Origin: a virus
Lineage: Duplodnaviria; Caudoviricetes
Virus record (IMG/VR): IMGVR_UViG_3300030708_000492
Span: 1 to 37,127 of that record
Direction: 5' to 3' (one strand)
DNA length: 37,127 bases
Shown here piece by piece: positions 7,205 through 28,722 of this stretch. Numbering within the stretch: position 1 is the stretch's first letter; every line of letters begins with the position of its first letter. The translations under genes were made by a program, and so were the position numbers. The notes below the pieces were generated by a model, which saw nothing but the letters and a program-made list of their open reading frames with translations, had not been told where the DNA came from and made no database searches.

Positions 7205-7582
7205 ATGGCAAACAGAAAAAGAGGTTATTACTCAACTAAATTGGGTGGTAAAGTTCGCACAATGCATTTTTCAATGAATTTTTGGACGAATTTTACAGAT
7301 TTATTAGAAATACCAATTGAAAGAATTGGTGACATATTCCAAAAAGGAATTAACCTGTCAACTATAAGAGCGCTGATCTATTCGGCGCTTTTGGCTAATG
7401 ATCAAGAAAACAACAATGAAATAGATTACAATGTTTATACTGTTGGTTCTTGGTTAGATAATATGCCAGCAGAAAAAATAGAGGATATTGTTTCTGCAAT
7501 GATGGAATCAAAAATACTTGGCAACGATCTTAACGTTGGTATTAAACGTACTGTCACTAAAACTACAAAAAAGGGAAAGTAA
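7205..7582 (+). CDS. Tail assembly chaperone (lambda gpG analogue)
   Basis: Lies between tube and tape measure genes; ends in codons GGA AAG TAA at a slippery site. Confidence 0.85.
   Translation: MANRKRGYYSTKLGGKVRTMHFSMNFWTNFTDLLEIPIERIGDIFQKGINLSTIRALIYSALLANDQENNNEIDYNVYTVGSWLDNMPAEKIEDIVSAMMESKILGNDLNVGIKRTVTKTTKKGK
7573..7579 (+). other. Programmed -1 frameshift heptamer G GGA AAG
   Basis: Same heptamer as the lambda G/GT site, in the correct X XXY YYZ phase immediately before the stop. Confidence 0.85.
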
Positions 7583-10342: not shown

Positions 10343-12351
10343 TGGCATACGGAGTAAAATATCGTTTAGAATTTAGTGACGTTTTAACTAAAGTAAAAAA
10401 AATTGAAATTTGGAAAGATGGTTATTCAGGGGCAGTTCTTGACATGGTCGGACAAGCAGAACCTGTTGTTATAAAATGGAATGCAAATGATGACCCATAT
10501 AATTCGCCAATAATAGGTTCAGTTTGCACATTAAATTTATTTACAACAGACACTGTTACTTATGATAATTTTTATGAACATGACGAAAGAGAATATAAAG
10601 TAAAAATTTCATATAAAGACAGTTCAAATGTTTATCGAACTTATTGGATTGGCTGGTTAGTTGTTGACAGATTTAAAGAACAGTATAAAGCAAACCCTGT
10701 AGCATTTAGTTTAAATGCGTATGACGGTTTAGGAACTCTTGATAATTTTGACGCACCAATAGGGACAAGTCCATTTAATGAAGCAACAGGAATAACAAAT
10801 TCAACAAGAATAGCAACAATTCTTGCTAATTTAAATTTAGGTTTAGAAATATATGTTCAAGCTGATTTAATGGTTAGCTTTGGAAGTTACCCGAAACGTA
10901 AAAACGTTATGAGTGATACACTTATAACAAATGGTCGGAATGAATTACTTAATAAATTTGATCTACCAACTTGTAAAAAACAACTCGAAGCAATACTTAG
11001 CAATTACAACTGTCGTATTTTTCAATCTTATGGGCGTTGGTACATATTAGAAAATTCAAATATATTTGACGCAAATGTTAAATCAAGTATTTATTCAACA
11101 GCAAATGGAGGGACAACTCCAACAGGAATACAATCTAGTATTACAGCTCAATTAGTCAGCGCAAATGATGAAGTAATACAAACTGACATTTATAATTCAT
11201 CTGGCGTTTATCAATCGAGCACAAATGAATCAGTTTTAAAAACAGTTCCAACAAATTTAAAAAACATTGGAGGCGATTTAATACGTGAATATATACAACC
11301 ACTAAACGAAGCAAAATATAAATTCTCCACAACACAAAACAACTGTTATGAATATACTCGTAACATAGGTTTTGAGTACGGCACATATGGTTGGGTTTTA
11401 TCAAGTTACGCATCATTAACAACAGATGATTTTACAGAACAAGGACGCAAAGCAATAAAATTTGTAAATGCGCCAACATCTGGTGAAACTCTTGTATTTA
11501 ATTCAGATTATGCTGGTCAAACTGCAAAATCTTGGAACTATTATTATACAGGAACTACAGCACAATTTGGAGTTTTTGCAGAAAAAAATGAAAACAGTGT
11601 TTCAAGTTTTACAGTGCAAGTAAGAATTGTTGCTGATAGATCGCCAAACTTCCATTATTGGGACGATGAAAACAGTACATGGACTACAACTGAAACCACT
11701 ATAACAAGAACAGTTGAAGTGTTTAACAATTGGCAAGTTTTAAGCATACCATTTACTGGAACAGGATATCCAACTAATTTTACTGGTATTCAAATAGGCG
11801 TACAAGTTTTAAATTGTACTTATTCTGGTACAGGAATACAGAACATTTATTTTGACAATGTTGGTATTTTAGGTAATTATTTTAAACCTTCAGGATTGTC
11901 AGCAGCAGCTAACGACAATAGACAATTGCCGAGTGCATACATAGAGTTTGCAAAAAGAAGTTCAACGTCAAGTGTTTACAGTGATGAAAAAACAATAACA
12001 GGAACTTATTATTTTAGCACTGGAAATGGATTGCCTACAACATATGTTTATAAAAGAACACGTGATACAGATGTAAAACCTATGTATCATAGACATTTAC
12101 AAAATATATTAAATGATTATAGAACGTTTTTAGTACGTTATGAAGGAACTTTCCGCAACATGGACAATAGTCCTGTCAGCATTCATAACAGAATATGGTT
12201 TAATTTCGGAACGTCAATTGCACAAGACCCACAAAGTTGTTACATTGACGGTTTAACTTATAACATAAAATCAGCAAGCGCAAAAGTGATAGCTCATTTA
12301 CCAAATAGTGATGATGATATTAGTTGTATCTTTAGAATAACGAGTGAATAA
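10342..12351 (+). CDS. Tail tip/baseplate hub structural protein
   Basis: 669 aa, coupled to the tape measure gene (TAATG); beta-rich with a possible jelly-roll insert (NIGFEYG...W...YFDNV). Confidence 0.7.
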   Translation: MAYGVKYRLEFSDVLTKVKKIEIWKDGYSGAVLDMVGQAEPVVIKWNANDDPYNSPIIGSVCTLNLFTTDTVTYDNFYEHDEREYKVKISYKDSSNVYRTYWIGWLVVDRFKEQYKANPVAFSLNAYDGLGTLDNFDAPIGTSPFNEATGITNSTRIATILANLNLGLEIYVQADLMVSFGSYPKRKNVMSDTLITNGRNELLNKFDLPTCKKQLEAILSNYNCRIFQSYGRWYILENSNIFDANVKSSIYSTANGGTTPTGIQSSITAQLVSANDEVIQTDIYNSSGVYQSSTNESVLKTVPTNLKNIGGDLIREYIQPLNEAKYKFSTTQNNCYEYTRNIGFEYGTYGWVLSSYASLTTDDFTEQGRKAIKFVNAPTSGETLVFNSDYAGQTAKSWNYYYTGTTAQFGVFAEKNENSVSSFTVQVRIVADRSPNFHYWDDENSTWTTTETTITRTVEVFNNWQVLSIPFTGTGYPTNFTGIQIGVQVLNCTYSGTGIQNIYFDNVGILGNYFKPSGLSAAANDNRQLPSAYIEFAKRSSTSSVYSDEKTITGTYYFSTGNGLPTTYVYKRTRDTDVKPMYHRHLQNILNDYRTFLVRYEGTFRNMDNSPVSIHNRIWFNFGTSIAQDPQSCYIDGLTYNIKSASAKVIAHLPNSDDDISCIFRITSE

Positions 12352-12377
12352 GAACTTGCTTTCCTTTTCTGTTTGCA

Positions 12378-16967: not shown

Positions 16968-16986
16968 ATTTACTAAAACGAATAAA

Positions 16987-18669
16987 ATGATAAATGAATT
17001 AAGTGCATTAGGTATAAAAATATTAAAACAAAAAGGTGAATATAAAACCACATGTCCACAATGTAGTCATACAAGAAAAAACAAACGGGACAAATGTTTA
17101 TCTGTTGACATCACCAACGGTTTGTACAATTGTCATAATTGCGGATGGTCAGGATCAGTGCAAAAATTTTCTACAAAACCTGACTATATTAAACCACTTG
17201 GAACAAATATACAGCTCAACAAAAGAGTTTTAAATTGGTTTGAACAACGTAAAATTACAGAATCTACATTATTACATTGGAAAATTGGCGAATCATTAGA
17301 GTATATGCCACAAGTAGGAAAAAAAAGACGTGTAATCAATTTTAATTATTTTAGAGATAATGAATTAATAAACGTAAAATTTAGAGATAGTGAGAAAAAT
17401 TTTAAAATGGTTTCTGGTGCAGAATTAATATTCTACGGATTAGATAACATCAAAGAATTAGATACTGTTTATGTAGTTGAAGGCGAAATGGACGCATTAA
17501 GTTTACATGAAGTTAATTTATACAGTGTTTGCAGTGTTCCAAACGGTGCAAGTAAAGGCAATCAAAAATTAGAATATTTAGATAATTGTTATCAGTATTT
17601 TGAAAATAAAAAAACAATTATTTTATGTACTGATAATGATGAACCAGGTTTAATGTTACGCAATGAATTAGCAAGAAGATTTGGTTATTATAAATGTAAA
17701 TATGTCGATTTTGGCGAATATAAAGACGCAAATGATGTATTAATTAACGCAGACAAAGATACATTACGCAATATAATTTTAAATGCTAAAAATTTTCCAT
17801 TAGAAGGAATTGTTAATATTGACAACATATGGCAAAACGTTTTAAATTTTAACGAAAAAGGTTTAAAAAACTATTCTATCGGAATGGGCAATTCTGATAA
17901 TTATTTTAAATTAGCATTTGGCGAATGGACAGTTGTTACAGGAATTCCTAACAGTGGAAAATCTGATATAGTAGATCAAATATGTTGCAATCTATCTACA
18001 AAATATGGTTTTAGATGTGCCATGTATGCGCCAGAATCTTTTCCATATGAAGGACACATTAAACGTATTGCAAATAAATTAAATGAAAAAAATTGCACAA
18101 ATGATGATTTAAATAACACTAAAGATTTTATACAAGAGCATTTTCATTGGGTAAAAATTGATCTAGAAAATCTTACATTAAAAGGAATACTAGACGCATT
18201 TAAACAATTAGTTTTACAAAAAGGAATTAACATTTGTGTTATTGACCCGTACAATATGTTAGATCATTCAGCACAAAAAGATTACAGTTACATTGGACGT
18301 TTACTTTCACAAATAACACAATTCTGTCAACAAACAAAAACACATTTATTTTTAGTTGCACACCCCAGAAAAATTGAAACTATCGAGGGTAAATATAAAA
18401 AACCGTCATTATATGATATTTCAGGAAGTGCTGATTTTTTTAACAAAAGTTTTAATGGTTTAATTGTGTTTAGAGAAATAGGGCAAAAATCAAAATACAA
18501 ATCAGACATTGTAAGTGTTTACGTTGAAAAAGTAAAACGTAAAGAAAACGGTCAGTTAGGAAGTTTTCAAATAGCGCCAGATTTTTATAATGGTGGCGGT
18601 GTTTATAAACATTTTACACGTGAGAATAAAAAATTTGAAGTTATAAAAGATAATAATATACCATTTTAA
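16987..18669 (+). CDS. Primase-helicase (T7 gp4/Twinkle-like)
   Basis: Zn finger CPQC...CHNC, TOPRIM VEGEMDALS and DND, SF4 helicase GIPNSGKS, IDPYN, AHPRK, DISGS. Confidence 0.93.
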   Translation: MINELSALGIKILKQKGEYKTTCPQCSHTRKNKRDKCLSVDITNGLYNCHNCGWSGSVQKFSTKPDYIKPLGTNIQLNKRVLNWFEQRKITESTLLHWKIGESLEYMPQVGKKRRVINFNYFRDNELINVKFRDSEKNFKMVSGAELIFYGLDNIKELDTVYVVEGEMDALSLHEVNLYSVCSVPNGASKGNQKLEYLDNCYQYFENKKTIILCTDNDEPGLMLRNELARRFGYYKCKYVDFGEYKDANDVLINADKDTLRNIILNAKNFPLEGIVNIDNIWQNVLNFNEKGLKNYSIGMGNSDNYFKLAFGEWTVVTGIPNSGKSDIVDQICCNLSTKYGFRCAMYAPESFPYEGHIKRIANKLNEKNCTNDDLNNTKDFIQEHFHWVKIDLENLTLKGILDAFKQLVLQKGINICVIDPYNMLDHSAQKDYSYIGRLLSQITQFCQQTKTHLFLVAHPRKIETIEGKYKKPSLYDISGSADFFNKSFNGLIVFREIGQKSKYKSDIVSVYVEKVKRKENGQLGSFQIAPDFYNGGGVYKHFTRENKKFEVIKDNNIPF

Positions 18670-19890: not shown

Positions 19891-19960
19891 AAAAAAATAA
19901 AAAAAAATTTAAAATTTTATTGAAAATATTTTTTTAATTTAAAATGTTGTTGTATATTTG
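19891..19960 (+). promoter_or_regulatory. Extended AT-rich promoter of island 1
   Basis: TATATTTG at 19953-60; 58/70 ungapped identity to 27157-27226. Confidence 0.7.
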
Positions 19961-19987
19961 GTATATCAAACAATTAAAACAATAAAA

Positions 19988-20197
19988 ATGTTAATGAAAG
20001 TTAAAAAAATAAGAGAAGGGGTTTACAGGGTTACAGATTCACAAGGTGTATGGATTGCAAGAGGTGGAGTTGGTACTGATAACGGAAAGTGGACAGCTAA
20101 TCAATGTGATAAATTAGAAGATTGCACAAACGAAAACAATTGGGGTGTTCAGTTTGATACTTTCAAACAATTAAAACAATTTGCACAAAACAATTAA
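19988..20197 (+). CDS. Hypothetical small protein (island 1)
   Basis: The ATG at 19988 after an A-rich leader is more plausible than TTG 19958, which overlaps the -7 box. Confidence 0.7.
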   Translation: MLMKVKKIREGVYRVTDSQGVWIARGGVGTDNGKWTANQCDKLEDCTNENNWGVQFDTFKQLKQFAQNN

Positions 20198-20218
20198 TAA
20201 CAATAAAAACTAAACAAA

Positions 20219-20389
20219 ATGAAAAACTTAAAAACAGCTTTAAACAAACAACTAGATATTTATTTAGATGAAAGAGAAGAACTATTAAGAACTATAACCG
20301 TTCACGAAGAAGAAAAAGCTCTTAAAATACAATTAGACATAGTAAGAGATAAAATTGTTGAAGTAGCTAAAATAATTAATAAATTATAA
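20219..20389 (+). CDS. Hypothetical helical protein, 56 aa (island 1, not in track)
   Basis: MKNLKTALNKQLDIYLDEREELL...IINKL; A-rich leader shared with 27561. Confidence 0.7.
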   Translation: MKNLKTALNKQLDIYLDEREELLRTITVHEEEKALKIQLDIVRDKIVEVAKIINKL

Positions 20390-20412
20390 AACAATAACAA
20401 TTTAAACAAAAT

Positions 20413-20441
20413 AACCCCTGCAGAAATGTGGGGGTTTTTTT
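20413..20441 (+). terminator. Intrinsic terminator closing island 1
   Basis: AACCCCTGCA-GAAA-TGTGGGGGTT followed by a T-run. Confidence 0.85.
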
Positions 20442-27156: not shown

Positions 27157-27226
27157 TAAAAAATTAAAAAAAATTTAAAAAAAAACTAAAAATATTTTTT
27201 TATTTTAAAAAAGTGTTGTATATTTG
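27157..27226 (+). promoter_or_regulatory. Extended AT-rich promoter of island 2
   Basis: TATATTTG at 27219-26; homologous to 19891-19960. Confidence 0.7.
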
Positions 27227-27255
27227 AAGTAACAATAACAACAAAAACAAAAATT

Positions 27256-27510
27256 ATGAAAACTAAATTTGAAATCGGAAAAATTTATAGAGGAGTTAGC
27301 GGAGTTGGTACTATAGATTTAACAATAACTAAAAGAACACCAAAAACTATATGGGTTAAAACTTGTTTCGGTATTGACATGTTAAGAGTTAAAAATAACT
27401 GTTCAAATGAAGAAACAGTAAAATTTAAAAGCTGGTATTGTGGTGCAAATGACATTTATACAGAAGATCAAATGTTAAAAGATGCTTATTACCAGGCATA
27501 CGAATATTAA
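27256..27510 (+). CDS. Hypothetical small protein (island 2)
   Basis: MKTKFEIGKIY...ITKRTPKTIWV, a small beta-rich phage protein; A-rich leader. Confidence 0.75.
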   Translation: MKTKFEIGKIYRGVSGVGTIDLTITKRTPKTIWVKTCFGIDMLRVKNNCSNEETVKFKSWYCGANDIYTEDQMLKDAYYQAYEY

Positions 27511-27524
27511 AAACAAATATTAAC

Positions 27525-27544
27525 GAGGGGTATTTTTGCCCCTC
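27525..27544 (+). other. Intergenic stem-loop without a U-tract
   Basis: GAGGGGTA-TTTT-TGCCCCTC directly before the leader of 27561; possible processing or stability hairpin. Confidence 0.65.
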
Positions 27545-27560
27545 ACAAAAACTAAACAAA

Positions 27561-27701
27561 ATGGAAACAAAAGATTTACTAGATTATATTGACTTTACAA
27601 CAATTTGTGAAGATTATAATTTAAAAAGTGGAGATTTAACTTGGAAACAAACAAGTGAATTACAAGAAATAATAAAACAATATATTAACCAAAATAAATA
27701 A
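27561..27701 (+). CDS. Hypothetical protein, 46 aa (not in track)
   Basis: METKDLLDYIDFTTICEDYNLKSGDLTWKQTSELQEIIKQYINQNK. Confidence 0.7.
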   Translation: METKDLLDYIDFTTICEDYNLKSGDLTWKQTSELQEIIKQYINQNK

Positions 27702-27703
27702 TT

Positions 27704-27940
27704 ATGACAACAATAGAATTTATGCTAGACAAAATAGCAAAAAAAAGATATAACGAAAAATATAAATATTGTACAAAAAAACAACAAATGCAATGTTTAA
27801 TATATCTTGATCAAGATTTAAAAATAATAAGACAAAAAGAAAAGGTAGATACACACGTAAAAAAGTGTTTAACAATAATTTTAGCAATACTTCTTATCGG
27901 TTTAATAGGTAATGCTTTTATAAACTTTTTTAGTTCGTAA
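27704..27940 (+). CDS. Hypothetical protein with a C-terminal TM helix
   Basis: CLTIILAILLIGLIGNAFINFF. Confidence 0.7.
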   Translation: MTTIEFMLDKIAKKRYNEKYKYCTKKQQMQCLIYLDQDLKIIRQKEKVDTHVKKCLTIILAILLIGLIGNAFINFFSS

Positions 27941-28059
27941 TGTACGTTTATTTTGACACATACAGCGAATATGATTATAAATGCAATTATTGTGAAAAAC
28001 AAATGTTAGAAGATCAACATTATTGTTGCAATGATTGTTTTAAAGCAGACATGTTATGA
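27940..28059 (+). CDS. Small zinc-ribbon protein, 39 aa (not in track)
   Basis: MYVYFDTYSEYDYKCNYCEKQMLEDQHYCCNDCFKADML (CxxC...YCxxxC); TAATG coupling. Confidence 0.7.
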   Translation: MYVYFDTYSEYDYKCNYCEKQMLEDQHYCCNDCFKADML

Positions 28060-28199
28060 ATAAAGATTTAATAAAATATATTTTATGTACAACTTTGCTT
28101 GTATTTAGCATTAGACAGTTACATTTATATAATGACACAATAGGGTTTTTATTTTTAATTATCCTATTTTTTTCAGTCACGTTAGCACGTGAAACATAA
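28056..28199 (+). CDS. Small membrane protein, 47 aa (not in track)
   Basis: MNKDLIKYILCTTLLVFSIRQLHLYNDTIGFLFLIILFFSVTLARET, two hydrophobic segments; ATGA coupling. Confidence 0.65.
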   Translation: MNKDLIKYILCTTLLVFSIRQLHLYNDTIGFLFLIILFFSVTLARET

Positions 28200-28260
28200 T
28201 TTTTTTTGATTAGTTTAGTTTTTGTTAGAACCAGGTAAAATTATTTTACCTGGTTTTTTT
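28195..28260 (+). ncRNA. Candidate 3'-UTR-derived antisense RNA S1 (U-rich segment plus terminator)
   Basis: Complementary to the start regions at 27240-27258, 27545-27557 and 20205-20215; no expression evidence. Confidence 0.3.
28229..28260 (+). terminator. Intrinsic terminator closing island 2
   Basis: Perfect stem AACCAGGTAAAA-TTA-TTTTACCTGGTT followed by a T-run. Confidence 0.9.
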
Positions 28261-28274
28261 GTATATTATATGAC

Positions 28275-28646
28275 GTGAATAGCAATTTACTTGGGTGTAC
28301 AGCTGAATATAAATTTGCAACCATGGCAATGGAAAACGGTTTATTTGTATCAATGCCATTGTTAGATTCCTCTCCATATGATTGTATAATTGAATTGCCA
28401 AATTATAATCTTCGCAAAATACAAATTAAATCAACTGCAAAACCTGAAGTGCCACGTGGCATACATGTTACTTTACACACAAATAATAGATACTATAAAT
28501 TAAACGAGGTAGATTATTTTGCTATTTGGGTTGCAGTTTTCAACGGTTTCTTTATAATTAAAAATACAGGAACAAACAGCGCATTTAAATTTACACGTAA
28601 TGGCAAATATTCAAATAATTTTAATAACTTTGCAATAATCGAGTAA
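28275..28646 (+). CDS. Free-standing PD-(D/E)XK endonuclease (group I intron-associated/homing type)
   Basis: G..AE......G..VS.P...SPYD.I......IQIKS...VDYFAIW; GTG start. Confidence 0.75.
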   Translation: MNSNLLGCTAEYKFATMAMENGLFVSMPLLDSSPYDCIIELPNYNLRKIQIKSTAKPEVPRGIHVTLHTNNRYYKLNEVDYFAIWVAVFNGFFIIKNTGTNSAFKFTRNGKYSNNFNNFAIIE

Positions 28647-28722
28647 ATCGATTTTCCTTTATATATAATTTTTATTCGTTTTCATTTAAAAAGTGTCGCA
28701 AAATATTGTGACACTTTTTTTT
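28647..28722 (+). ncRNA. Candidate 3'-UTR-derived antisense RNA S2 (U-rich segment plus terminator)
   Basis: 28670-28682 is a perfect 13-nt complement of the primase-helicase leader 16975-16987, and the segment contains the anti-start TTTTCATTT; no expression evidence. Confidence 0.3.
28688..28722. terminator. Intrinsic terminator after the nuclease gene
   Basis: AAAAAGTGTCGCAA-AATA-TTGTGACACTTTTT followed by a T-run. Confidence 0.9.

Follow-up and report, generated by a model that had tools for sequence, protein, structure and literature searches.

The window analysed here, the whole 37,127-base length of a virus record rated complete, carries at the end of a cluster of small genes a U-rich tail (designated S1) which, on balance, is probably the seed of an antisense RNA against leaders and start codons of the phage's island genes, acting in cis and, probably, also in trans, as judged from sequence comparison. 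This RNA would arise as the terminated 3' end of the transcript of island 2, or else by a predicted cleavage of that transcript. By covering the A-rich leaders and AUGs of the phage's promoter-proximal island genes it would block ribosome loading; its own mRNA would be reached by fold-back and other island mRNAs, probably, in trans. A conserved, terminator-capped anti-start tail which co-varies with the phage's own island leaders was supported by the comparison of relatives, while other parts of the initial annotation fared less well.

The S1 locus and its genomic setting

The phage is of siphovirus type with an HK97-like head (protein family scan and capsid comparison) and is a marine phage, probably of Flavobacteria-type bacteria. 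A Flavobacteriia-type host was suggested because terminase relatives came mostly from Bacteroidota assemblies (Saprospiraceae, Lutibacter, Flavobacterium and Sphingobacterium) and because TAnnTTTG boxes, the -7 promoter consensus being taken from PMC9723704, are found upstream of many window genes. No close cultured relative was found, the best capsid matches in the phage collection being 31-35% identical, and no integrase or repressor family was named among the 48 window proteins scanned against PHROGs. A 100% identical terminase was found on a 35.8-kb contig (L081) from an assembly labelled Woesearchaeota, which is probably a mis-binned phage contig.

Small unannotated genes form two islands, each behind a TAnnTTTG box (island 1, 19953-20436; island 2, 27219-28260), and both are presumed early from promoter type and gene content. 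The cargo of island 2 (window 27256-27510; L001, L002, L154 and L160) is swapped among relatives of 97-98% identity with the leader identical, and the start of the window's first island gene recurs in 63%-identity relatives which, with the cargo swaps, points to cassette exchange. In L035 and L039, island 2 opens after the capsid terminator with a GC-richer, ORF-free, structured-looking stretch and no gene, possibly a non-coding RNA cargo.

S1 is present as a single copy in the phage genome, and its features are given in Table 1. The anti-AUG (CAT) is formed by the last codon plus stop (ACA TAA) of the last island ORF, the stop codon overlapping the anti-AUG, and the predicted RNA consists of a small hairpin, a weakly folded U-rich seed (predicted opening cost about 2.4 kcal/mol) and a terminator, in that order. 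Other hairpins were found at the position of the small hairpin in L003 and L004 and none was evident in L006-L009; the window's own clade has this small 5' hairpin alone, and it is missing from some members. The downstream nuclease gene is apparently leaderless, with a -7-like box (28262-28269) abutting the T-run of the terminator. This PD-(D/E)XK_5 nuclease is fixed between the island and the head-tail genes in most relatives and may be packaging-associated.

In one metatranscriptome a fraction of 0.17 of the words was present, and its contigs covered all 30 bins of 17-36.9 kb. One 245-nt contig of depth 4 spans 28052-28296 across the terminator. As such contigs reveal neither strand, ends nor level and may derive from DNA, these data do not bear on an S1 transcript.

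Table 1. Positions in the window of S1, its neighbours and its predicted targets
Feature	Position	Strand	Remarks
-7 promoter box TAnnTTTG of island 1	19953..19960	+	from sequence
Start of gene 20219, island 1 (predicted trans target)	20202..20225	+	rank 3 of 53; net -13.0 kcal/mol
-7 promoter box TAnnTTTG of island 2 (capsid-nuclease interval)	27219..27226	+	from sequence; consensus PMC9723704
Leader and AUG of first island gene 27256 (predicted target)	27240..27258	+	net -6.7 kcal/mol; S1 partner in whole-transcript fold
Start region of gene 27561 (predicted target)	27545..27566	+	rank 1 of 53 leaders; net -13.5 kcal/mol
Last island ORF	28056..28199	+	47 aa, hydrophobic, no Pfam/PHROG family, kept in close relatives
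Small hairpin in last codons, 5' of seed	28177..28192	+	6 bp, 4-nt loop; predicted fold
S1 seed, from last codon and stop of last island gene to terminator	28195..28226	+	U-rich, C-poor; predicted pairing with island starts
Intrinsic terminator	28227..28260	+	+ strand polarity; covarying in relatives
PD-(D/E)XK endonuclease gene (PF11645)	28275..28646	+	immediately downstream of S1 at every locus examined
S2, second antisense tail, after nuclease	28655..28687	+	

Pairing with start regions and co-variation in relatives

The four complementary segments reported in the initial annotation were all exact when the sequence was re-checked. Positions 28213-28225 are the exact 13-nt complement of 27545-27557 in the leader of gene 27561, 28213-28223 complements 11 nt (20205-20215) in the leader of gene 20219, which lies in a separate predicted transcript 8 kb upstream of S1, and 28195-28204 and 28218-28226 complement 27249-27258 and 27240-27248, respectively. 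The latter two segments jointly cover 19 contiguous bases of the 27256 leader, AUG included, a pairing that leaves 13 nt of the tail bulged out. When S1 was ranked over 53 ORF starts, gene 27256 was placed sixth behind the targets ranked in Table 1, with the late genes 29774 and 7205 second and fourth (net energies after opening costs of -11.7 and -5.7 kcal/mol, respectively). The duplexes are A-U rich and modest, at about -7 to -13 kcal/mol net in the window.

It had been cautioned that low-complexity A/T matches arise easily by chance, and this was borne out: 995 of 2000 dinucleotide shuffles of the tail gave a match of at least 13 nt somewhere on the + strand, 68 of 2000 gave one of at least 13 nt in the five early leaders, and two leaders were matched at 11 nt or more by 110 of 2000. 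The duplex energy of the window tail compared with shuffles gave p = 0.12 for the first leader and p = 0.049 for the best island leader. The window match by itself is marginal, barely beyond chance, and its non-chance status rests on the relatives.

Capsid relatives numbered 80, at 63-98% identity, of which the 61 with the downstream nuclease were retained, most of the 19 left out ending soon after the capsid gene; with the window these gave 40 distinct tails, which were grouped by hand into 19 groups, and the duplex energies with own and foreign first island leaders were compared. The tail was found to change together with the leaders of its own genome, pairing with the own first leader at -13.5 kcal/mol versus -10.7 kcal/mol for foreign leaders (p <5e-5, 19 groups). 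This preference was retained without the four strongest groups (p = 0.01), over six super-groups (p = 0.0125) and when permuting within super-groups (p = 0.034), while the same comparison was null for the last gene (p = 0.22), the capsid (p = 0.62), the adaptor (p = 0.37) and gene 28746 (p = 0.99), as well as with the capsid UTR as query (p = 0.30). Of 14 branch-independent pairs drawn on the capsid tree, 9-11 favoured the own leader (200 draws, with a median Wilcoxon p of 0.003), compared with 5-6 of 15 for the last gene as control. Dinucleotide shuffles were beaten at p <0.05 by the tails of 10 of the 19 groups (combined p 1.5e-9, a value which overstates independence), with no excess in groups E and N.

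Island-1 leaders, which belong to a separate transcript, were also tracked by the tail (p = 0.001 in 10 groups, with hand-picked leaders in 19 loci; p = 0.01 without L076, the strongest), whereas the gene before island 1 was not. In L076, the strongest pair at -23.6 kcal/mol, 24 bases of the first leader are covered by the tail, which also has a 12-base match to the leader in island 1. The tracking of island 1 may be indirect, because island-1 and island-2 leaders of one genome are similar (their longest shared run being 10.1 nt, versus 8.8 nt).

A replication was performed on 19 loci in 9 new groups obtained from 80 nuclease hits, with a cutting rule that was essentially unchanged, truncated long UTRs and miscalled one first gene. 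It was weak for the first leader (p = 0.036) and null for the best island leader (p = 0.52). The whole-genome leader ranks listed were mixed, and in G042 no island leader was among the top 6. The weak replication, the mixed ranks and the marginal single-locus statistics all count against an antisense tail.

The base composition of the 40 tails, in which T makes up 62%, G 16%, A 19% and C 3%, was compared with that of host-family UTRs (T/G/A/C 35/12/39/14; 75 of 106 stop-to-terminator UTRs, 15-60 nt), giving a median T+G of 0.78 versus 0.47. A generic host 3' UTR was rejected for most UTRs, 2 of 75 reaching the bulk of the phage T+G range. The S1-like host-family 3' UTRs are L114 (minus strand, after a SusD-like gene) and L131:13735; that of L114 mirrors a leader plus AUG, yet not its own susC start, and hints at a host class of such tails.

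The tail persists even where capsid identity falls to about 51%. In an alignment of 19 sequences from one clade, it is the loop enclosed by a stem of 9 bp. Both sides have changed at 6 of these 9 pairs; the closing stem is paired in 96% of cells (31-50% in slid controls), its 5' arm is coding, and G-U pairs occur on the + strand. The closing stems of L191, L198 and L209 are unrelated to it. As the anti-AUG and the 5' arm of the stem overlap the last codons, the tail would be free only without translation of the last gene, or after processing. The AUG is fully paired in 32 of 49 predicted duplexes (CAU in 21, UGU in 6 and UAU in 5), and since the wobble variants of CAU are the commonest mutations too, these variants were used solely against a minus-strand start codon. 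A YR-stop ending was found in 23 of 40 last island genes, compared with 44 of 172 other island genes.

Action in cis or trans and alternative readings

A rather unlikely reading, though the best placed of the alternatives, is that S1 acts in cis only, the 3' tail closing on the first leader of the same mRNA in the manner of icaR, which would damp the first gene or age the message, any action in trans being negligible. The first leader shows the strongest co-variation, the best-of-island test failed in the replication, and in whole-transcript folds (four long transcripts were skipped) closure of the tail on the first leader by at least 10 bp is seen in 11 of the 15 groups, against 29 of 105 for shuffled tails. 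However, the remaining 4 of 15 folds lack closure, island-1 leaders are tracked as well, the best accessible targets in the window are genes 27561 and 20219 and not the first leader, and two further sets of observations, on gene-free copies and on the adjoining S2 tail, speak against cis action alone.

Gene-free copies, which have no leader in cis, were found at 9 of 9 loci of the other genome layout, with an invariant TATATTTG box upstream. The layout comprises a promoter box, a short hairpin or spacer, the U-rich tract, a terminator and the nuclease, all behind lysis genes, with zero island genes between box and terminator at all nine loci. In their preference for island leaders some 10 kb distant, the gene-free tracts of the close kin G035 and G036 exceeded 40 of 40 shuffles and that of G037 exceeded 39 of 40, while those of G038 and G039 failed to beat shuffles (15 and 13 of 40 being as good). 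The island-end UTRs of G035 and G036 showed no gain over shuffles. An invariant direct repeat (TGAATTYAATA twice), possibly an operator, precedes the -7 box of the gene-free copy (L182:2440-2500 and eight relatives), and G035, G036 and G038 have repeats similar to this pair downstream of the major tail gene.

Within S2, positions 28670-28682 are the exact 13-nt complement of the primase-helicase leader (16975-16987), 11.7 kb away, which S2 tracks (own -12.8 versus foreign -7.7 in 13 genomes, no tree correction being applied); a one-base shift in L004/L005 is matched on both sides. S2 also tracks the first island leaders (p = 0.002), while S1 showed no tracking of the primase leader (p = 0.60). 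A further tail (S3, 12349-12376) follows virion gene 10342 and contains a 12-nt exact complement of codons 2-5 (7208-7219) of gene 7205, a likely tail assembly chaperone starting MANRKR; in G044, where the gene starts MTNKK, the S3 tail is altered to match. It is conceivable, and put forward tentatively, that addressed antisense tails and not protein repressors run the gene programme, with S1 shutting off the early islands, S2 acting likewise on the primase-helicase and S3 on the tail assembly chaperone, each co-evolving with its address.

Less probable again is that the tail is a U-rich element which binds protein (e.g. an RRM protein or bS1), attracts an RNase or aids termination, its complementarity being a by-product of lineage composition. 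The tail always adjoins the terminator, and of the two similarly T/G-rich host-family UTRs the one after the susD gene fails to match its own susC leader, both of which fit such an element; but the co-variation is target-specific with null controls, and a protein site is disfavoured because it would keep one motif and not follow the leaders of each lineage.

Base composition does not tell RNA pairing apart from an inverted repeat in the DNA. A relic at the DNA level was considered, in which either an island leader copied in inverted form or the beginning of a minus-strand gene since lost has stayed alike through recent duplication or conversion. The reverse complement of the tail does resemble a hairpin-leader-ATG cassette boundary and its composition mirrors that of the leaders. 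This reading is nevertheless very improbable given that the tail is kept across such divergent capsids and forms an RNA stem with G-U pairs on the + strand. The minus strand of the window reads only MFHVLT*, as had been noted in excluding the leader of a reverse gene, and a minus-strand mini-gene was rejected in the relatives also, an ATG being present in 23 of 40, with unconserved ORFs of 1-40 aa and a minus-strand -7 box in 1 of 40.

The suggestion that host genes may also be silenced was not supported, and a host shut-off RNA masking host A-rich leaders in general is slightly more improbable still. Host leaders are A-rich, and 6% of 200 sampled reached -13 kcal/mol with the window tail versus 3% with shuffles; yet in tests on 80-200 of 553 host-family leaders (a proxy which may not represent the true host) the tails beat shuffles in 10 of 19 groups by small margins, and the own first leader stood at a median top 7% of host leaders. 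Least credible of all is an RNA antitoxin or attenuator for the downstream nuclease: the order tail-terminator-nuclease is kept even behind lysis genes (in the second locus set by construction, because those loci were found by nuclease), but own-versus-foreign pairing with the nuclease 5' end was not significant (p = 0.11), a repeat array is lacking and a separate -7-like box serves the nuclease.

Comparison with known systems and implications

Phage RNAs which silence genes of their own phage by pairing, with seeds in loops, include the c4 antisense RNA of P1/P7 and the CI RNA of P4, processed immunity RNAs of temperate elements located 5' of their targets. In contrast, S1 is at a 3' end, has no Rfam match and accompanies no integrase or repressor among the 48 proteins scanned. 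In the Rfam search there was no match to the tail at gathering score and none convincing at E <=10; a FopS entry was possibly absent from the copy searched, while the FopS structure is stated as deposited in Rfam (PMC11697453).

Bacteroidota lack Shine-Dalgarno (SD) sequences, initiation depending on mRNA structure and upstream adenines (PMC6847099), and no obvious Hfq or ProQ homologue is reported for the phylum in PMC7366714. GibS of Bacteroides thetaiotaomicron represses SD-less mRNAs by start-codon pairing (PMC7366714). FopS, a multicopy chromosomal family in Bacteroidaceae, is RbpB-bound and also pairs at start codons, mostly of the first genes of operons, with experimental repression of SusC mRNAs; FopS-14 is derived from a 3' UTR and one FopS sequence is noted in phage (PMC11697453). 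As far as these accounts describe the two RNAs, S1 resembles them in having a single-stranded seed followed by an intrinsic terminator (by predicted fold, with a covarying terminator) and in pairing, in silico only, at start codons typically of the first gene of a polycistron. Unlike them, it is phage-borne and single-copy, it is directed at island genes of the phage itself, those of its own operon among them, and not at SusC, and its seed changes with the leaders of each lineage, in a comparison made without the R1/R1' seed letters. S1 thus likely works like FopS and GibS yet falls outside them on copy number, location and targets.

In Staphylococcus aureus, the icaR 3' UTR blocks initiation of a single gene by pairing, through a UCCCCUG anti-SD motif, with the initiation region of its own mRNA, the duplex being cleaved by RNase III (PMC3868564). 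On the basis of this description, S1 is alike in that a 3' UTR is predicted to pair with the initiation region of its own mRNA, in the whole-transcript folds given above, but has no UCCCC anti-SD (its tails being 3% C and its target leaders without an SD-like run), is U-rich, addresses several SD-less leaders and appears to reach another transcript.

It had been suggested that silencing by masking starts had no described counterpart in such phages. The pairing mechanism has precedents in Bacteroidota hosts, namely GibS and FopS, whereas a phage 3' UTR antisense to the phage's own leaders was not found in the literature searched, most subscription papers being outside its scope. The antisense tail acting in cis and trans was preferred because GibS and FopS pair at start codons and icaR shows 5'-3' UTR pairing. 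Covering about -17 to +7 should, as for GibS and FopS, stop initiation, because initiation in Bacteroidota takes place on open, A-rich leaders. In both layouts the element is located among late structural or lysis genes and so may accumulate late, shutting genes that are probably early; we infer the processing, timing and repression by S1.

The question addressed is how genes are shut off in small Bacteroidota phages without a named repressor or sigma factor. A 30-nt tail silencing any cargo gene behind a shared leader would explain the control of swappable island genes and, if true, would provide design rules for antisense control in a phylum lacking Shine-Dalgarno pairing. Should the tentative scheme of several addressed tails hold, the variable A-rich, SD-less leader of Bacteroidota would be a regulatory barcode inherited by any newly acquired island gene.
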